The notes under the pieces: generated by a model | Database searches by the model: none | Told to the model about the DNA's origin: nothing | What the model saw: only the letters and a program-made list of their open reading frames with translations | Part shown: piece by piece, positions 23,569 to 44,459 of the stretch | Layout: each line of letters starts with the position of its first letter | How positions within the stretch are numbered: the first letter of the stretch is position 1 | Translations under genes and position numbers: made by a program | Sequence record: MZ436830.1 | DNA from: Escherichia phage JK1 | Strand: one strand, 5' to 3' | Length of the DNA stretch: 64,000 nucleotides

Positions 23569-23955
23569 TTATTCGAGGGAAAGAAGATACTTACTCTGGT
23601 AAAACATCCCAGTAATATCATCTATCGTGCTTTGGATGGCTGGAGGCATTTCTTTATAAATGCTGTTAGATTGGTCTAGTATGCGATCAATCATTTTAAT
23701 TGTGTCGGTAGGAAGTTTACTGGCATCTGGAATTGAAGGTGTGTATTTTCTACCAGAATACCCCAAATATTGCTCACCAAATTTATCAATCAAATCTGGC
23801 AACTCGGAGAAAATAAAATCGTATGCTTTGTGTCTAGCATAACTTTTAGTTTCAAAATGTGCAGAATGAAAATAAGCTTGTGCAGCCATTAATAAACCTA
23901 AGTATTCATCTGCCTTTGAAGGTTTTCCACTTTGTGAAAAGTCGCTGAATTTCAT
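23569..23955 (-). CDS. Hypothetical protein (rI.-1-like position)
   Basis: 128 aa ORF immediately upstream of rI. Confidence 0.5.
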
Positions 23956-24245
23956 TCAGTCTCCAATTTAATGTTCATAATTCTAGCGTATGATTGTGCC
24001 ATCTCCGCGCCTCGTTCTATACATTCAAAATCAGAAGAGCACGGGTCATTTTTATAGGTCGTTCTCATAAAACTATAGAATTGTTCAGACGATTCTACGC
24101 TTTTATTTTCAAAAAGTGTATAAACGTGCCTAATACCAGATTCCATAAATTTATCAAAATGAGGATCGACATTCGCTTCAATCGATGGAGATAAAACAAA
24201 TGACAATCCTAGCATGGCAAATAGTGCCGTTGCTTTTAAGGCCAT
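23952..24245 (-). CDS. rI: Lysis-inhibition regulator RI (signal-anchored)
   Basis: 97 aa; MALKATALFAMLGLSFVLSPSIEANVDPHF matches T4 RI as I recall it. Confidence 0.8.
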   Translation of the reverse strand: MALKATALFAMLGLSFVLSPSIEANVDPHFDKFMESGIRHVYTLFENKSVESSEQFYSFMRTTYKNDPCSSDFECIERGAEMAQSYARIMNIKLETE

Positions 24246-24512: not shown

Positions 24513-25094
24513 CTAACCGAGCTTTTTAGTTAATTCATTCCAATGTTTTCTACACAAAGAAACATAAATTTCATCACCAATACAGATTTGATTACCTTCT
24601 TTAACTGGTGTTCCATCTTCCATTAATCGAGCTGTCATAATCGCTTTTTTACCACAATGACAAACTGCTTTTAGTTCAATAAGTTTATCTGCAATCGCTA
24701 AAAGTTCTTTAGAACCTTCAAACAATTTTCCAGCGAAATCAGTCCTTAATCCATAAGCCATAACAGGAACATTATATGTATCAACAATTCGGCTCAATTG
24801 ATGCACTTGTTCAGTTTTTAAAAACTGAGCTTCATCTACAAATACGCAATGAATATCTTTTTGTGCTTCAGCCCATTTATAGAACTCGAAAATATCCATA
24901 TCATCTGTAATAATATTCGCTTCCTGTTTAATTCCAATGCGAGAAACAACTTCACAGACAGAATCGCGAGTATCAATAGCAGGCTTAAGAACTAATACAC
25001 TCATTCCACGTTCTTTATAATTATGTGCAGCAGTCAAAAGAGAAGCAGATTTTCCAGCATTCATTGCTGCATAAGTAAAAATTAAACTCGCCAT
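24513..25094 (-). CDS. tk: Thymidine kinase
   Basis: 193 aa; P-loop AMNAGKS; C-terminal Cys cluster CHCGKK..C..C. Confidence 0.9.
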   Translation of the reverse strand: MASLIFTYAAMNAGKSASLLTAAHNYKERGMSVLVLKPAIDTRDSVCEVVSRIGIKQEANIITDDMDIFEFYKWAEAQKDIHCVFVDEAQFLKTEQVHQLSRIVDTYNVPVMAYGLRTDFAGKLFEGSKELLAIADKLIELKAVCHCGKKAIMTARLMEDGTPVKEGNQICIGDEIYVSLCRKHWNELTKKLG

Positions 25095-25103
25095 ATCACC
25101 TTC

Positions 25104-25289
25104 TTAAAGCGTATTCACATAAGCTATTAATTCATTTTCTTTCTTATCAAACAGATCAGCAAATTCTTCCTGCTGTTCAGGAGATAGCGGGCCGTATTCA
25201 TCATAAAAGGTGTTTGCTTCTGTATGCTCATCTAGAAGTTCATGGATAAGCTCAAACAATTTATCTTTTTGTTCTTTACTCAGACTCAT
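25104..25289 (-). CDS. Small helical acidic protein, xEQxxKLxELI family-like
   Basis: 61 aa; MSLSKEQKDKLFELIHELL. Confidence 0.45.
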   Translation of the reverse strand: MSLSKEQKDKLFELIHELLDEHTEANTFYDEYGPLSPEQQEEFADLFDKKENELIAYVNTL

Positions 25290-25455
25290 ATATTAATTTC
25301 CAGGAGTTTTAAGATAATTCGCTTTTGCTTAAATATTTCCATCGTTAAATGATCAATATCTTTTTGACCAATTCCAATAGCAAAACCCTTATTTACGGCA
25401 AGTTCAATTAAATTATCAATATTGCGTAAAACTTCATAACGTAACTCAAAATTAT

Positions 25456-25683
25456 TCATTTTGGTTCACCTTCTTTAACGAAATCAGGATAAGGATAAAA
25501 TCCTGAATAAAATCCTTCACCTTTATGATTGATGCATCCTTTATTAGAACAATAGCACCAATAATCGAAATCACAAGCCATTTCATCGTTGCATAAAGCA
25601 AAAACAACCGGCCACTTACACTTTTCACAGTGGGCATTTTTAAGAATACTAGTTTGGCTCATAACCATGTAACCTTTAAGCAA
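25456..25683 (-). CDS. Small Cys-rich (putative zinc-binding) protein
   Basis: 75 aa with 8 Cys, including CEKCKW and CYCSNKGC. Confidence 0.45.
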   Translation of the reverse strand: MLKGYMVMSQTSILKNAHCEKCKWPVVFALCNDEMACDFDYWCYCSNKGCINHKGEGFYSGFYPYPDFVKEGEPK

Positions 25684-25871
25684 TATTCTTCTACATGTTG
25701 TTTACGACCTTTCTTATCAATAAAGGTATATTCAACGAATGTTCCAATGTAGTCTTTATCTACATCATGTGGACTATTAATTGGACATTTAGTACGGCAA
25801 ATGCGTTCCCATTGACGAATAATTACTGCTTTGTTTTTAGGATCAAACGGATGTGGGTAATGCACTTTCAT
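25659..25871 (-). CDS. Hypothetical small protein
   Basis: 70 aa ORF. Confidence 0.4.
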   Translation of the reverse strand: MKVHYPHPFDPKNKAVIIRQWERICRTKCPINSPHDVDKDYIGTFVEYTFIDKKGRKQHVEEYCLKVTWL

Positions 25872-26322
25872 AATCCACCACTATTAAATCAATATCAGGA
25901 GTAAACATGTCGATTAATTTAGAAACCTTATCCCAATCGCCGCCAGCAATACCACAACCTATGCGTGGAATGTAAATTACCGGTTTAAACAAAAGGGTTT
26001 CTGCCTGTAGATTTAATTCTATCATGCAGTTTACTAAAGCACCATAATCAAGATTAGGACCTGGTTCGTATTGCGTATACAGGTTATAGCATATACCAAA
26101 TCCCGTAGGACTATGTTTAAAAACAATAGACATATCGCCTAATTTATCACGAGAACCGTACTCAGTAGTGGTTTTATCTATTTCTAAAATTTTGGGATAG
26201 GCTCTGGCTAATTGACCCGCTACACCTGAACCCATAGTATGAAAACAATTGCACCCGTGCGCAATAATATTACCTTGAAGAAATAGGGCGACAATATCGC
26301 CCTTGATATATTTTACAATCAT
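25843..26322 (-). CDS. Possible macro-domain (ADP-ribose binding/processing) protein
   Basis: 159 aa; Gly-rich motif HGCNCFHTMGSGVAGQLARAY resembles the macro-domain N..N...GGGV.GAI..AAG signature; by eye only. Confidence 0.4.
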   Translation of the reverse strand: MIVKYIKGDIVALFLQGNIIAHGCNCFHTMGSGVAGQLARAYPKILEIDKTTTEYGSRDKLGDMSIVFKHSPTGFGICYNLYTQYEPGPNLDYGALVNCMIELNLQAETLLFKPVIYIPRIGCGIAGGDWDKVSKLIDMFTPDIDLIVVDYESALPTSV

Positions 26323-26660
26323 CTAGTACTCAATCCTCGATTATAAGAATCTACCAAACGGTCAACCATTGAATGACAAGCGGCTTTATCTTTCTCCTCC
26401 GCAACTGAACATTCTAAGGTATTCCACTTTTTAGCATATCGTTTTAACAATGTATCATTTTTGTATCTGCTTGATTTATCTCTTTCTCCGTCTTTATATG
26501 CATATATTAATTTCTGCGCAAATTCAGCTTGGCATGCTTTATTTTTCCCGCAATAATCCGCTGCAGTACGGTTTACATACTCTCTAATTTCAGTATATGA
26601 TGTATCTGCTAACGCAGAAAATGAAATTAATCCTATACATAAAACCAAAATTTTAGTCAT
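26319..26660 (-). CDS. Small secreted or periplasmic protein with signal peptide
   Basis: 113 aa; N-terminal MTKILVLCIGLISFSALA; several Cys. Confidence 0.45.
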   Translation of the reverse strand: MTKILVLCIGLISFSALADTSYTEIREYVNRTAADYCGKNKACQAEFAQKLIYAYKDGERDKSSRYKNDTLLKRYAKKWNTLECSVAEEKDKAACHSMVDRLVDSYNRGLSTR

Positions 26661-27198
26661 TTACTATTTCCAAAAGTTTATTATTTTTAAGGTAATTAGC
26701 CTTTTCTAGGACTTCAGAAGCATATTTAGAACCTGCTTTAACATTCCATCCCGAATTATAAGAGGATATTGCTTTTCTTATATCGCCCTTATGTATATTT
26801 AACCAATAAGAAAGTTCAATGTACGCCCAGGAAGCTGAATTGGACCGTTTATTCAACATTCTTTTTATTTCAGCATCGGTCATATTATAACCAAGTTCCT
26901 TAACTCTTGCTCGCATAGTAGGCAAATAATTTTGGAACATTCCATAAGCGTGATGCTTTGGTTTAGATTTTAAATTAACTCCGCCAGAGCTTTCTTGCCA
27001 TAAAATAGCAGCCATTATATGACCTAATCCGCTCTTGTGGATATTTTTGTGTGTTTTATATTTTCCATCCTTAGAAAATTGTTCCCCGAATTGATACGCG
27101 TAACGCATGTTATCGAGTTGGACATTACTGAAAGTATGCTCGGAGCTATGTGCCATCATTGAAATGGCCAATAGACCAGCGAGTAGTGCTTTTCTCAT
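26653..27198 (-). CDS. Secreted lytic-transglycosylase-like (SLT domain) protein
   Basis: 181 aa; signal peptide MRKALLAGLLAISMMAHS; AILWQESSGG (catalytic E-S) and SYNSGW motifs. Confidence 0.55.
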   Translation of the reverse strand: MRKALLAGLLAISMMAHSSEHTFSNVQLDNMRYAYQFGEQFSKDGKYKTHKNIHKSGLGHIMAAILWQESSGGVNLKSKPKHHAYGMFQNYLPTMRARVKELGYNMTDAEIKRMLNKRSNSASWAYIELSYWLNIHKGDIRKAISSYNSGWNVKAGSKYASEVLEKANYLKNNKLLEIVND

Positions 27199-27205
27199 GC
27201 TTACC

Positions 27206-27667
27206 TCATTGAGTTTTAATTACTGCTTTAGAAGCCTTTCCTGGTAAACGACGACTGTTGATAATTGCCATCCTGCATTGAAGTGACGGGTTTTTGAACT
27301 TCTCATTAGGCTTACAAACCGTAAATCCAAGCCAAAGATTTCCATCTGTGATTTCTAAACGTCCAGGACGATATTCAACCCCATCAATAAAATCCTCGTC
27401 AATGTCAGGACGCGGAGGCATACTCAGGAATTCATTAACTTCTAAAACATGGTCTTTTATTTTATGGAATAATTCAAAAACATATGTCTCATCAATCTCC
27501 CGTTGAATTGCACGATCAAGAAGATGTTGAGAATATTTTAGATGAAACGATGAGACTCCTGCTGCTTTTGATGCCTCACGAATCTCATTGTTAATTTGAC
27601 GAAACTCCGACTCAAAGTGACGACGAAGCTTATTTCGACGGATAAAAACTTCTGTATTGATAGTCAT
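27206..27667 (-). CDS. regB: RegB endoribonuclease
   Basis: 153 aa; length, position and N-terminus consistent with T4 RegB as I recall it. Confidence 0.75.
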   Translation of the reverse strand: MTINTEVFIRRNKLRRHFESEFRQINNEIREASKAAGVSSFHLKYSQHLLDRAIQREIDETYVFELFHKIKDHVLEVNEFLSMPPRPDIDEDFIDGVEYRPGRLEITDGNLWLGFTVCKPNEKFKNPSLQCRMAIINSRRLPGKASKAVIKTQ

Positions 27668-27694
27668 GTTATTCTCCTCTTAACTGATAGAAAA

Positions 27695-28271: not shown

Positions 28272-28485
28272 ATTTGACTTCCTCACCAGTACATAAATCG
28301 TATTCAACTAAACGAATAGGTTCATGAATGCCATATCCCTGAACAGAAATTTCTGTAGTAGGATAAATTCCATCAATATCACCCATATTCCACGCTTCGT
28401 TAAATTGCTGTTCGCCTGAATTACTAAACCACTCGGCGAAAGCATTTAGCACATCTTTAGAACCTTCAATAATTATCTTTGCCAT
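28264..28485 (-). CDS. Hypothetical small protein
   Basis: 73 aa; TAATG overlap with the upstream gene. Confidence 0.45.
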   Translation of the reverse strand: MAKIIIEGSKDVLNAFAEWFSNSGEQQFNEAWNMGDIDGIYPTTEISVQGYGIHEPIRLVEYDLCTGEEVKYD

Positions 28486-28847
28486 TACAAACTCTCGGTG
28501 AAGGTACGAGCGATAACGTCGCGCTGCTGTTCCGGAGTCAGAGAGTTAAAGCGAACTGCATAACCGGATACACGGATGGTCAGCTGCGGATATTTTTCCG
28601 GATGCTTAACTGCATCTTCCAGAGTTTCACGACGCAGAACGTTAACGTTCAGGTGTTGACCACCTTCAATTTTAACTGTAGGCTGTGGCTCAATTTCAAT
28701 TTCACGGGCATGCAAACCGTAGAAAATTTCTGGGTCTACAAAAGAGTCCTCTTTAAAGGTTTTAGAGACAATAATTCGTGCTTGAATACCATCTTCAAAA
28801 TAAATAGTGCCTTTATGTGTGCCTTCAAGAATTTGATATGCTTTCAT
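28485..28847 (-). CDS. Autonomous glycyl-radical cofactor (GrcA/YfiD-like)
   Basis: 120 aa; C-terminal glycyl-radical motif [25 protein letters not shown]. Confidence 0.8.
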
Positions 28848-30823: not shown

Positions 30824-31792
<969 letters not shown>

Positions 31793-42748: not shown

Positions 42749-44459
42749 TAACCTTAATTGGTTTGTTGGTGTTGTTGAAGATAGAATGGACCCATTAAAA
42801 TTAGGTCGTGTTCGTGTTCGTGTGGTTGGTCTGCATCCACCACAAAGAGCGCAAGGTGATGTAATGGGTATTCCAACTGAAAAATTACCATGGATGTCAG
42901 TTATTCAACCTATAACTTCTGCAGCAATGTCTGGAATTGGAGGTTCTGTTACTGGACCGGTAGAAGGAACTAGAGTTTATGGTCATTTTTTAGACAAATG
43001 GAAAACTAACGGAATTGTCCTTGGCACGTATGGTGGAATAGTTCGCGAAAAACCGAATAGACTTGAAGGATTTTCTGACCCAACTGGGCAATATCCTAGA
43101 CGTTTAGGAAATGATACTAACGTACTAAACCAAGGCGGTGATGTAGGATATGATTCCTCTTCTAATGTTATTCAAGATAGTAACTTAGACACTGCAATAA
43201 ATCCTGATGATAGACCACTATCAGAGATTCCAACTGATGATAATCCAAACATGTCAATGGCTGAAATGCTTCGCCGTGATGAAGGATTAAGACTAAAAGT
43301 TTATTGGGATACTGAAGGATATCCGACAATTGGTATTGGTCATCTTATCATGAAGCAGCCAGTTCGTGATATGGCTCAAATTAATAAAGTTTTATCAAAA
43401 CAAGTTGGTCGTGAAATTACAGGAAATCCAGGTTCTATTACAATGGAAGAAGCGACGACTTTATTTGAGCGTGATTTGGCTGATATGCAACGTGACATTA
43501 AATCACATTCTAAAGTAGGACCAGTCTGGCAAGCTGTCAACCGTTCTCGCCAAATGGCATTAGAAAATATGGCATTTCAGATGGGTGTTGGCGGTGTAGC
43601 TAAATTTAACACAATGTTAACTGCTATGTTAGCAGGAGATTGGGAAAAAGCATATAAAGCCGGTCGTGATTCATTGTGGTATCAACAAACAAAAGGCCGT
43701 GCATCCCGTGTTACCATGATTATTCTTACGGGGAATTTGGAATCATATGGTGTTGAAGTGAAAACTCCAGCTAGGTCTTTATCGGCAATGGCTGCGACTG
43801 TAGCTAAATCTTCTGACCCTGCTGACCCTCCTATTCCAAATGACTCGAGAATTTTATTCAAAGAACCAGTTTCTTCATATAAAGGCGAATATCCTTATGT
43901 GCATACAATGGAAACTGAAAGCGGACATATTCAGGAATTTGATGATACCCCTGGGCAAGAACGATACAGATTAGTTCATCCAACTGGAACTTATGAAGAA
44001 GTATCACCGTCAGGAAGAAGAACAAGAAAAACTGTTGATAATTTGTATGATATAACCAACGCTGATGGTAATTTTTTGGTAGCCGGTGATAAAAAGACTA
44101 ACGTCGGTGGTTCAGAAATTTATTACAACATGGATAATCGTCTTCACCAAATAGATGGAAGCAATACAATATTTGTACGTGGCGATGAAACTAAGACGGT
44201 TGAAGGTAATGGAACTATCCTAGTTAAAGGTAATGTTACTATTGTAGTTGAAGGTAATGCTGACATTACAGTTAAAGGAGATGCTACCACTTTAGTTGAA
44301 GGAAATCAGACTAATACAGTAAATGGAAATCTTTCTTGGAAAGTTGCTGGGACAGTTGATTGGGACGTTGGTGGTGATTGGACAGAAAAAATGGCATCTA
44401 TGAGTTCTATTTCATCTGGTCAATACACAATTGATGGATCGAGGATTGACATTGGCTAA
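42732..44459 (+). CDS. 5: Baseplate hub / cell-puncturing protein gp5 with lysozyme domain
   Basis: 575 aa; internal lysozyme domain MAEMLRRDEGLRLKVYWDTEGYPTIGIGHL (paralog of e); C-terminal VEGN-type beta-helix repeats. Confidence 0.9.
   Translation: MEMISNNLNWFVGVVEDRMDPLKLGRVRVRVVGLHPPQRAQGDVMGIPTEKLPWMSVIQPITSAAMSGIGGSVTGPVEGTRVYGHFLDKWKTNGIVLGTYGGIVREKPNRLEGFSDPTGQYPRRLGNDTNVLNQGGDVGYDSSSNVIQDSNLDTAINPDDRPLSEIPTDDNPNMSMAEMLRRDEGLRLKVYWDTEGYPTIGIGHLIMKQPVRDMAQINKVLSKQVGREITGNPGSITMEEATTLFERDLADMQRDIKSHSKVGPVWQAVNRSRQMALENMAFQMGVGGVAKFNTMLTAMLAGDWEKAYKAGRDSLWYQQTKGRASRVTMIILTGNLESYGVEVKTPARSLSAMAATVAKSSDPADPPIPNDSRILFKEPVSSYKGEYPYVHTMETESGHIQEFDDTPGQERYRLVHPTGTYEEVSPSGRRTRKTVDNLYDITNADGNFLVAGDKKTNVGGSEIYYNMDNRLHQIDGSNTIFVRGDETKTVEGNGTILVKGNVTIVVEGNADITVKGDATTLVEGNQTNTVNGNLSWKVAGTVDWDVGGDWTEKMASMSSISSGQYTIDGSRIDIG

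Follow-up and report, generated by a model that had tools for sequence, protein, structure and literature searches.

The 64,000-nucleotide stretch of the Escherichia phage JK1 genome analysed here (MZ436830.1; hereafter the window) carries, on its minus strand, the well-known tk.3-tk.4-vs-vs.1 segment of a T4-like coliphage in the T4-type gene order. We consider it likely, taking the account as a whole, that the macro-domain protein of this segment, Tk.4, is a Gln-type thymidine-ADP-ribose hydrolase directed against DarT2, that Vs.1 is an exported protein with a GH23/SLT fold, and that the genes are neighbours by synteny. As originally stated, these findings contain nothing new and are already annotated or published: annotations have given tk.4 a macro domain for some twenty years, and the anti-DarTG2 role of the gene in T4 was reported in 2025. 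What goes beyond the existing annotation is the mosaic tk.4 allele, 58% identical to that of T4, and the invariant Gln84/Asn25 in place of a catalytic Lys.

The window is from a Tequatrovirus and shares 99.5% DNA identity with phages slur02/04. The minus-strand order is Zn-binding ORF, tk.3, tk.4, vs and vs.1, with tk and regB on either side (Table 1). All ORFs and motifs named in the original prediction were found again on this strand, but its gene list had left out tk.3, which lies between the Cys-rich and macro ORFs. The genes overlap: vs shares 8 nt at its start with the end of vs.1 and 4 nt at its stop with the start of tk.4, and the first 29 nt of tk.3 overlap the 3' end of tk.4. Probably, tk.4 is co-transcribed with these packed same-strand neighbours, and regB is likely the start of the shared transcription unit. 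A promoter-like site near regB (minus strand, 27723-27695; TTTACT-17-TATAAT with TG) is a consensus match only, and in a promoter and terminator scan of the region the number of sites was not above chance.

Table 1. Features of the tk-regB region of the window.
Feature	Position	Strand	Description
tk thymidine kinase, downstream flank	24513..25094	-	Pfam TK E=6.3e-61; 96.6% DNA identity vs T4
Cys-rich zinc-binding-domain ORF	25456..25662	-	68 aa, 7 Cys; Pfam PF23895 Phage_zn_bind E=2.6e-29
tk.3	25659..25871	-	70 aa; Pfam DUF7202 E=8e-39
mosaic (allele-replacement) segment	25838..26184		C-terminal two thirds of tk.4
tk.4 / adfM allele	25843..26322	-	159 aa, one macro domain
vs	26319..26660	-	113 aa; annotated 'valyl-tRNA synthetase modifier'
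vs.1	26653..27198	-	181 aa; SLT/GH23-fold, predicted export, candidate periplasmic lytic transglycosylase
regB endoribonuclease, upstream flank	27206..27667	-	Pfam REGB_T4 E=5.9e-69

Judged from its sequence and predicted structure, Tk.4 is a single, free-standing macro domain of the ALC1-like class that resembles SCO6735 and BT1257. The glycine-rich motif that had suggested a macro domain lies within residues 22-42 (HGCNCFHTMGSGVAGQLARAY), and the suggestion is borne out by the Pfam Macro profile (PF01661; E=1.3e-7 at 32 bits, cut-off 22; match over positions 2-117 of the 118 in the profile), by a confident AlphaFold2 model (pLDDT 94.6, pTM 0.89) with the three-layer alpha/beta/alpha macro fold, and by the structures that this model retrieves. 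Foldseek returned 162 matches in the PDB at E<=1e-3, and all of the 50 matches listed are macro domains or designed enzymes built on the TTHA0132 macro-domain protein. The best solved structures are TARG1, BT1257, Poa1p and DarG, all with a Foldseek probability of 1.00 and TM scores of 0.69-0.76 (about 0.75 at the top). The family profile of Tk.4 likewise finds BT1257 (7e-19), TARG1 (4e-17), SCO6735 (1e-15), Poa1p (1.4e-13) and M. tuberculosis DarG (5e-12) among solved structures. Sequence features gave no signal peptide for Tk.4, which would accordingly be placed in the cytoplasm in the explanation proposed here. By 2006 the A1pp domain match of tk.4 was in print, as was the similarity of vs.1 to SLT (PMC1524935). 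A tblastn search of Tk.4 against plasmids returned free-standing macro proteins and no DarG for comparison; the sequences of DarG, Slt70 and SCO6735 used here were taken from the alignments of the solved-structure searches.

The key residues of Tk.4 are H22, N25, the loop M30-G-S-G-V-A35, Q84 and the loop G122-C-G-I-A-G-G128. H22, N25, G33, A35, Q84, G122 and G124 do not vary among 46 homologues, whose identities go down to 38%. In the profile alignment, Q84 occupies the column of DarG K80, TARG1 K84 and SCO6735 Q85, and N25 that of SCO6735 N27; the catalytic Lys is thus absent, and Gln84 stands in its place in all 46 homologues as in the window protein. SCO6735, which guards against DarT, is a thymidine-ADP-ribose DNA hydrolase, and its activity is abolished by Q85A/E and N27S (PMC9411070). 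Because Gln84 and Asn25 are invariant where DarG and TARG1 carry a catalytic Lys, the chemistry of Tk.4 is probably SCO6735-like rather than DarG-like. We infer the following hydrolytic mechanism from the alignments and from this analogy. Host DarT2 would ADP-ribosylate thymidines in single-stranded phage DNA, by which replication would be blocked. The two glycine-rich loops of Tk.4 would bind the ADP-ribose, and hydrolysis of the thymidine-ribose bond would make the DNA replicable again. Asn25 may hold Gln84, which in turn may position the distal ribose for a water-initiated reaction that involves no catalytic Lys.

The same residues bear on an older view of the protein, in which Tk.4 would be a phosphatase that, like yeast Poa1p, acts on ADP-ribose-1''-phosphate; its task would be to remove a nucleotide by-product and not to repair DNA. 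Legacy labels point this way: the T4 RefSeq entry for tk.4 notes an 'A1pp phosphatase motif' and PHROG 335 is labelled 'phosphatase'. Poa1p also ranks high among the solved structures that match Tk.4 (phmmer E=1.6e-9, besides the profile match given above), and it has the H-x-C-N-C...G-x-G-[IV]-A motif in common with Tk.4, including the His that is mutated in 6LFS (H23A). However, of the mutated Poa1p residues, H23 and S30 align with H22 and T29 of Tk.4, while F152 aligns with Ala126, the very residue of the F152A mutant. The invariant Gln84/Asn25 is, moreover, the pair that SCO6735 needs for DNA de-ADP-ribosylation, and the sole known phenotype of T4 tk.4 is the loss of DarTG2 resistance. Nor is a source of Appr-1''-p known in E. 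coli infected with T4, and a phosphatase function seems to us quite unlikely.

Protection from DarTG2 has been shown genetically for the T4 allele, whose product Tk.4 (NP_049723) was named AdfM, for anti-DarT factor Macrodomain, in 2025 (bioRxiv 10.1101/2025.11.20.689424). In a T4 screen with DarTG2, the tk.4 knockout was the single significant hit, and a clean knockout was sensitised; hydrolysis by T4 AdfM rests in that preprint on fold similarity only (bioRxiv 10.1101/2025.11.20.689424). T4 without adfA and adfN kept its DarTG2 resistance. The original proposal that the phage macro protein could reverse an ADP-ribosylation-based defence thus agrees with what loss of the T4 orthologue does, and the most likely task of the window-type Tk.4 would, by analogy, be counter-defence against DarT2. 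At 58% identity to the tested T4 protein, however, the activity or the toxin range of the window allele could differ.

This divergence is one reason to consider that the substrate of Tk.4 might be protein ADP-ribosylated by host enzymes or by the phage's own Alt, ModA and ModB, ADP-ribosylated RNA, or immune signals derived from ADP-ribose, with DarTG2 protection a side activity or absent in the window allele, which differs from the tested T4 protein at 42% of its residues. SCO6735 also strips ADP-ribose from auto-modified PARP1 (PMC9411070), and macro domains of the Tk.4 class are reported to reverse RNA ADP-ribosylation (PMC11833690, PMC13036486). We nevertheless hold such a substrate to be very unlikely, tk.4 being the single significant hit in the screen for DarTG2 resistance. 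Arginine is the residue modified by Alt and Mod of T4, and macro domains are not known to cleave the arginine ADP-ribose linkage. The further suggestion that the macro protein processes ADP-ribose signals found no footing in the present analysis, which gave no evidence tying Tk.4 to signalling nucleotides.

Over the full length (155 aa aligned; E=1e-70), Tk.4 of the window is 58% identical to T4 Tk.4, which occupies the same slot between tk.3 and vs. The T4 protein has 155 aa as compared with 159 in the window, the window protein bearing 4 extra C-terminal residues. The two proteins are almost the same over residues 1-46 and have the family-invariant residues in common, whereas the differing residues lie mostly in the C-terminal two thirds. 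At the DNA level, identity to T4 in 60-nt windows is 45-70% in the mosaic segment and 82-87% at 26185-26304, as compared with 88-100% (mostly 95-100%) in tk.3, vs, vs.1 and regB; the genes flanking tk.4 are 97-100% identical to those of T4. The window tk.4 is thus a gene-bounded mosaic allele, the break being confined to tk.4. Of the deposited phage genomes, more than 270 carry this allele, which some of them label 'macro domain protein'.

Most of the divergence between the alleles lies outside the N-terminal ADP-ribose-binding loop, as might be expected if Tk.4 protected by binding, either by sequestering or blocking DarT2 ('interaction-inhibition') or by binding ADP-ribosylated DNA, with the divergent C-terminal two thirds tracking toxin surfaces. 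In line with this, the dead variants SCO6735 Q85A, DarG K80A and TARG1 K84A still inhibit DarT in vitro, SCO6735 most strongly, and ICP1 AdfB neutralises DarT by direct interaction. Yet H22, N25, Q84 and both Gly loops are invariant in the 46 homologues, which argues for retained catalysis, and Tk.4, with only 159 aa, has no DarG-type DarT-binding C-terminal domain. We therefore regard protection by binding as unlikely and keep to the hydrolase. A tentative extension of the hydrolase reading, more doubtful than not in our judgement, is that tk.4 is a swappable counter-defence cassette with at least two allele classes, the T4 type and the window type, which are more than 40% diverged and circulate in T4-like genomes that are otherwise nearly the same. 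Each class would counter its own DarT2 variants, or other ADP-ribosyltransferases directed at thymidine or uracil in nucleic acids, by the lysine-free Gln84/Asn25 mechanism and possibly by toxin binding. If so, the identity of the tk.4 allele, and not the presence of the gene, would set which DarTG-armed hosts are open to a T4-like phage. Sharply bounded, diverged tk.4 alleles in near-identical backbones are the pattern expected under arms-race selection. The remaining usefulness of the analysis is for those working on DarTG and on phage host range.

Downstream of tk.4, tk.3 has a DNA identity of 92-100% with T4 tk.3. The Cys-rich ORF that follows ends at 25456, as had been predicted, but a TTG start at 25683 is not retained: most likely the coding sequence starts at ATG 25662, since the Pfam match extends from this Met onwards and the annotation of phage slur02 has the same start. 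The encoded protein belongs to PHROG 2306, labelled function unknown, and the ORF is also present in T2 and in about 770 phage records. DNA alignment detected no counterpart at the corresponding position of the T4 tk region, to which 25095-25657 is unalignable except for a tk.2-like match at 25113-25290 (68% identical).

Vs.1 had been proposed to be a secreted SLT-type lytic transglycosylase, and the SLT assignment is upheld by a score above the Pfam cut-off (PF01464; 25.1 bits with a cut-off of 21.3, E=1.4e-5), a lysozyme-like GH23 fold and the catalytic motifs AILWQESSGG (64-73) and SYNSGW (146-151); as for the Macro and Phage_zn_bind families, the Pfam match is beyond chance. E69/S70, G86..Q89 and Y147-N148-G150 of Vs.1 correspond to E478/S479, G493..Q496 and Y552-N553-G555 of Slt70, although the local HMM alignment of the Vs.1 profile with Slt70 spans the YNxG segment only and the catalytic Glu was placed with MAFFT --add. 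Among 36 Vs.1 homologues, E69, G86, Q89, Y147, N148 and G150 are invariant and S70 is nearly so. Sequence similarity to E. coli Slt70 and the other family-1 GH23 transglycosylases is very low and the Foldseek E value is only 8e-3; searches of solved structures with the Vs.1 sequence or profile gave no match. Unlike Slt70, Vs.1 has one small domain with its own N-terminal helical extension of about 40 residues, and its homologues are confined to T4-like phages. The gene is non-essential in T4.

Vs.1 and also, unexpectedly, Vs have the look of exported proteins, their signal peptides being judged by sequence features only. The N-terminus of Vs.1, MRKALLAGLLAISMMAHS followed by SEH, consists of MRK, a 13-residue hydrophobic core and a putative cleavage site between AHS and S, with a Kyte-Doolittle value of 2.40 (2.37 for the N-terminus of rI). 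Vs.1 is thus probably exported by the Sec route and probably cuts the glycan strands of peptidoglycan in the periplasm. It had been called a second muralytic activity, distinct from lysozyme e, but is the third lysozyme-superfamily protein of the window: besides lysozyme e (30827-31318), a gp5-type stretch (43251-43748) also resembles T4 lysozyme. The predicted signal peptide of Vs can likewise be recognised in its N-terminus, MTKILVLCIGLISFSALA followed by DTSY (cleavage between ALA and D; Kyte-Doolittle 3.04), which suggests export of this protein too. Vs is 97% identical to T4 Vs (PHROG 1256) and has 4 Cys in its predicted mature part. The homologue search found only 6 close relatives; the Vs homologues keep the hydrophobic N-terminus and C37, C43 and C95. 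Vs had no match among solved structures, and searches of the literature for vs.1 function or a Vs signal peptide yielded nothing beyond the 2006 comparative paper.

The original prediction had also drawn attention to the clustering of the macro, Cys-rich and two secreted proteins. Their proximity is real, but it reflects T-even synteny and is not a functional module. That the four form one module, for example an envelope-linked ADP-ribose system, would fit with the dense same-strand arrangement of the genes, whose start and stop codons overlap, and with the retention of the order regB-vs.1-vs-...-macro-tk.3 in phage Cronus, from a second Tevenvirinae genus. Close gene packing is, however, the rule throughout the T4 early regions. 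Cronus has an additional gene between vs and the macro gene, no SLT, Vs or Zn-ORF gene adjoins the macro homologues of Vequintavirus and Felixounavirus, the Zn ORF is without a T4 counterpart, and tk.4 is swapped as a single-gene cassette. Since the predicted compartments differ as well, with signal peptides on Vs and Vs.1 and none on Tk.4, a common module is extremely improbable.

Among the known systems, Streptomyces coelicolor SCO6735 (PDB 5E3B) and Bacteroides BT1257 (2FG1) are alike to Tk.4 in the A-H-x-C-N motif, the Asn and Gln pair and the PRIGCG[IL]AGG.W loop. Identity to the phage-encoded Tk.4 is about 25%, and the mobile loop of SCO6735 is 5 residues longer, an insertion (MKTgskgaP) with Lys89 and Lys94 that Tk.4 does not have. 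Val/Ile25 and the Lys-bearing mobile loop, which is used for DNA, have been described as SCO6735-specific (PMC9411070); Tk.4 has Gly23 at the position of Val25, and N-L-Y-T-Q where SCO6735 has N-M-I-G-Q. Human TARG1/OARD1 (PDB 4J5R/4J5S) is the top Foldseek match of Tk.4 (E=2.6e-10, TM 0.75/0.84), but its catalytic dyad K84/D125 is replaced by Q84/A126.

The DarG macro domain (PDB 5M3I, 5M31) shares fold and class with Tk.4 (TM 0.74-0.75), and the Asn is common to both (DarG N22). The NCBIfam DarG N-terminal domain matches Tk.4 with E=1.6e-6, although for the DarG family (NF048014) the score is 27.6 bits with a cut-off of 250 and only positions 2-138 of 338 are covered; the C-terminal DarT-binding domain of DarG has no counterpart in Tk.4. 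Of the characterised anti-DarT factors of phages, AdfB of ICP1 was weighed as the closest and set aside, as it is described as having low DarG similarity and acting by direct interaction, and not as a macro hydrolase. The biochemically tested phage AdfM is gp104 of PhiKZ (PMC13309987), which is not of the Tk.4 kind: it is a macro domain like that of DarG, contains the Lys and is only about 25% identical to Tk.4. DarG and PhiKZ gp104 bear the catalytic Lys in FPTK(K/D) where Tk.4, 20-25% identical to them, bears Gln. The T-even AdfM is thus Gln-type and SCO6735-like, the PhiKZ AdfM a Lys-type DarG mimic, and mechanistic conclusions are therefore not transferable between them, although the target of DarG and PhiKZ gp104, the thymidine-ADP-ribose made by DarT2, is the one proposed for T4 Tk.4 too.

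The 3.2-kb query from this region matched 748 phage records, nearly all of T4-like phages of Escherichia and Shigella, and matched the Escherichia phages slur02, slur04, slur11, and slur13 at 99.5% identity. Gene order was set from the RefSeq annotations of slur02 and T4 (see table). All ORFs and motifs of the original prediction were found in place, and the family matches of the region's ORFs (Macro, SLT, Phage_zn_bind, DUF7202, REGB_T4, and TK) are statistically sound. The prediction had missed tk.3, which is flanked by the Cys-rich ORF and the macro gene; for the Cys-rich protein, the ATG at 25662 is the probable start codon. Within 25095-25657 the T4 tk region does not align except for the tk.2-like ORF, and the alignment shows that T4 tk.1 is absent from this interval, which holds the 57-aa and Zn-binding ORFs instead. 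Beyond regB lies vs.6 (28485-28847), annotated as a GrcA-like glycyl-radical cofactor.

Genes of the tk–regB region
Feature	Position	Strand	Evidence
tk	24513-25094	-	Pfam TK E=6.3e-61
tk.2-like ORF	25104-25289	-	68% DNA identity to T4
57-aa ORF	25286-25459	-	PHROG 3452
small Zn-binding (Cys-rich) ORF, 68 aa	25456-25662	-	PF23895 Phage_zn_bind E=2.6e-29
tk.3	25659-25871	-	DUF7202 E=8e-39
tk.4	25843-26322	-	Pfam Macro, 32 bits (cut-off 22)
vs	26319-26660	-	slur02/T4 RefSeq order
vs.1	26653-27198	-	SLT, 25.1 bits (cut-off 21.3)
regB	27206-27667	-	REGB_T4 E=5.9e-69

By position and sequence, the macro protein (159 aa) is the orthologue of T4 Tk.4, to which it is 58% identical over its full length. 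A homologue search yielded 794 relatives, and in a 46-member alignment H22, G23, N25, C26, G33, A35, D49, G62, N80, Y82, Q84, P119, G122, G124, and W130 are invariant. The AlphaFold2 model is confident (pLDDT 94.6, pTM 0.89) and its closest solved structures are TARG1, BT1257, Poa1p, and the DarG macro domains of T. aquaticus and M. tuberculosis (probability 1.00, TM about 0.7-0.75). The same set came back when solved structures were searched by sequence and by profile, with profile E-values of 7e-19 for BT1257, 4e-17 for TARG1, 1e-15 for SCO6735, 1e-13 for Poa1p, and 5e-12 for M. tuberculosis DarG; the NCBIfam DarG model is matched in its N-terminal macro part only. The Pfam match, the model, and these structural neighbours therefore bear out the macro fold suspected from a Gly-rich motif. 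The Felixounavirus homologue of Salmonella phage SP116 (L006:2495-3280), annotated as “phosphatase,” is 261 aa long; approximately 100 further residues are therefore joined to its macro domain, whereas the T-even Tk.4 proteins are single-domain.

Compared with T4 in 60-nt windows, the DNA of tk.3, vs, vs.1, and regB (25658-25837 and 26305-27678) shows 88-100% identity, mostly 95-100%; Vs.1 and Vs are 100 and 97% identical to the T4 proteins. DNA identity is 82-87% in the part of tk.4 encoding residues 1-46 and falls to 45-70% over 25838-26184, the C-terminal two thirds of the gene. Furthermore, vs occurs at ≥95% identity in ~497 phage records but this tk.4 allele in only ~272; T2 carries the T4-type allele. 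Since the drop is bounded by tk.4 and fewer records carry the allele, the sequence comparison identifies tk.4 as a gene-bounded mosaic allele that near-identical backbones exchange as a single-gene cassette, a pattern compatible with arms-race selection. Within the 5′ part of tk.4 (26248-26303, minus strand) are two hairpins resembling terminators (AGGGCGATATTGTCGCCCT and ATTGCGCACGGGTGCAAT), each with a T-rich tail; the scanned region holds six terminator-like sites, against an expectation of 2.6 ± 1.8 after shuffling.

The genes follow one another closely, their start and stop codons overlapping, and are probably preceded by a promoter-like site in front of regB. This site is a consensus match only, and such sites are no more numerous in the region than chance would give. 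That the macro, Cys-rich, and exported proteins form one functional module was rejected upon comparison. In Cronus, of another Tevenvirinae genus, the order is kept, yet an extra gene separates vs from the macro gene, and in Vequintavirus and Felixounavirus small, unrelated genes surround the macro homologue. The Zn-binding ORF has no counterpart in the aligned T4 tk region, while it occurs in T2 and ~770 other records. The recombination break sets tk.4 apart from its neighbours, and the predicted compartments of Tk.4 and the exported proteins differ.

The N-terminus of Vs.1 has Sec signal peptide features (MRK, a 13-residue hydrophobic core, AHS|S), conserved in 36 homologues, every one of them from a T4-like phage. 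Its E69/S70, G86..Q89, and Y147-N148-G150, invariant or almost so in the family, align with E478/S479, G493..Q496, and Y552-N553-G555 of Slt70, making Vs.1 a credible candidate periplasmic lytic transglycosylase. Our literature search found no functional work on Vs.1; T4 can dispense with vs.1, as well as with tk.3, tk.4, and vs. Vs.1 had been proposed as a second muralytic activity besides lysozyme e (30827-31318, 96% identical to T4 e), but a second T4-lysozyme-like stretch, of the gp5 baseplate lysozyme type (43251-43748, 43% identical), makes it the third lysozyme-superfamily protein encoded by the phage. Vs, whose gene start overlaps the end of vs.1 by 8 nt, also has a strongly hydrophobic, Sec-type N-terminus (Kyte-Doolittle 3.04; MTK, hydrophobic core, ALA|D) and, in its mature part, cysteines that are conserved (C37, C43, and C95); only six close homologue clusters were found and no match among solved structures. 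Such predicted export fits poorly with the annotated role, modification of valyl-tRNA synthetase, a cytoplasmic enzyme. Knocking out vs impairs plating on minimal medium (bioRxiv 10.1101/2025.11.20.689424), a phenotype that does not distinguish between sites of Vs action. With rI (23952-24245; lysis inhibition, hydrophobic N-terminus) 2 kb away, several envelope-directed small proteins lie in the same early region.

Earlier work found T2 and T4 without adfN still resistant to DarTG2, a DNA-ADP-ribosylating defence, and T4 likewise when adfA was missing too; it predicted a further T4 factor. In a 2025 preprint, T4 transposon mutants were screened on a host carrying DarTG2, and tk.4 was the single significant hit; its clean knockout sensitised T4 to DarTG2, the gene was renamed adfM, and hydrolysis of DNA-linked ADP-ribose was inferred by the authors (bioRxiv 10.1101/2025.11.20.689424). 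This agrees with the predicted reversal of an ADP-ribosylation defence. SCO6735 of Streptomyces coelicolor, with Gln85 at the lysine position, is a thymidine-ADP-ribose DNA hydrolase protecting against DarT; activity is lost in its Q85A, Q85E, and N27S mutants. A water-initiated mechanism was proposed, with Asn27 holding Gln85 and Gln85 positioning the distal ribose (PMC9411070). Q84 and N25 of Tk.4 align exactly with Gln85 and Asn27. Our best reading is that the Tk.4 of this phage is a lysine-free thymidine-ADP-ribose DNA hydrolase of the SCO6735 type, in which Gln84, with Asn25, would serve to free DNA thymidines of ADP-ribose and so counter DarTG2. The first rival, protection by binding of DarT2, draws on the observation that catalytically dead SCO6735, DarG, and TARG1 still inhibit DarT. 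Other rivals are action on other ADP-ribosylated substrates and the legacy idea of an Appr-1″-p phosphatase; T4 RefSeq labels tk.4 “phosphatase; contains A1pp phosphatase motif.”

The original observation is confirmed and its interpretation supported, with the essentials already annotated or published; of value remain the sharply bounded tk.4 allele dimorphism, Vs and Vs.1 as predicted exported proteins, and the split between two “AdfM” proteins. DarG, SCO6735, and TARG1 sequences, taken from the solved-structure search alignments, were aligned to the Tk.4 profile. The family-invariant Gln84 aligns with the catalytic lysine of DarG (K80, FPTKKHW) and TARG1 (K84), and Ala126 with TARG1 D125. 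By analogy with SCO6735, glutamine instead of lysine would not be a defect. SCO6735 has a longer, Lys-bearing mobile loop that Tk.4 lacks, and its Val25 position is Gly in Tk.4. PhiKZ gp104 (L003:12518-13006), also named AdfM in a 2026 paper and shown there biochemically to remove ADP-ribose from DarT2-modified TNTC DNA (PMC13309987), has the DarG-type FPTK lysine (MFPTKDNW) and ~25% identity to Tk.4. These differences place the two published proteins, as judged from their sequences, in separate macro subfamilies: PhiKZ AdfM is DarG-like with a catalytic Lys, whereas the T-even Tk.4 AdfM, with Gln84, is SCO6735-like.
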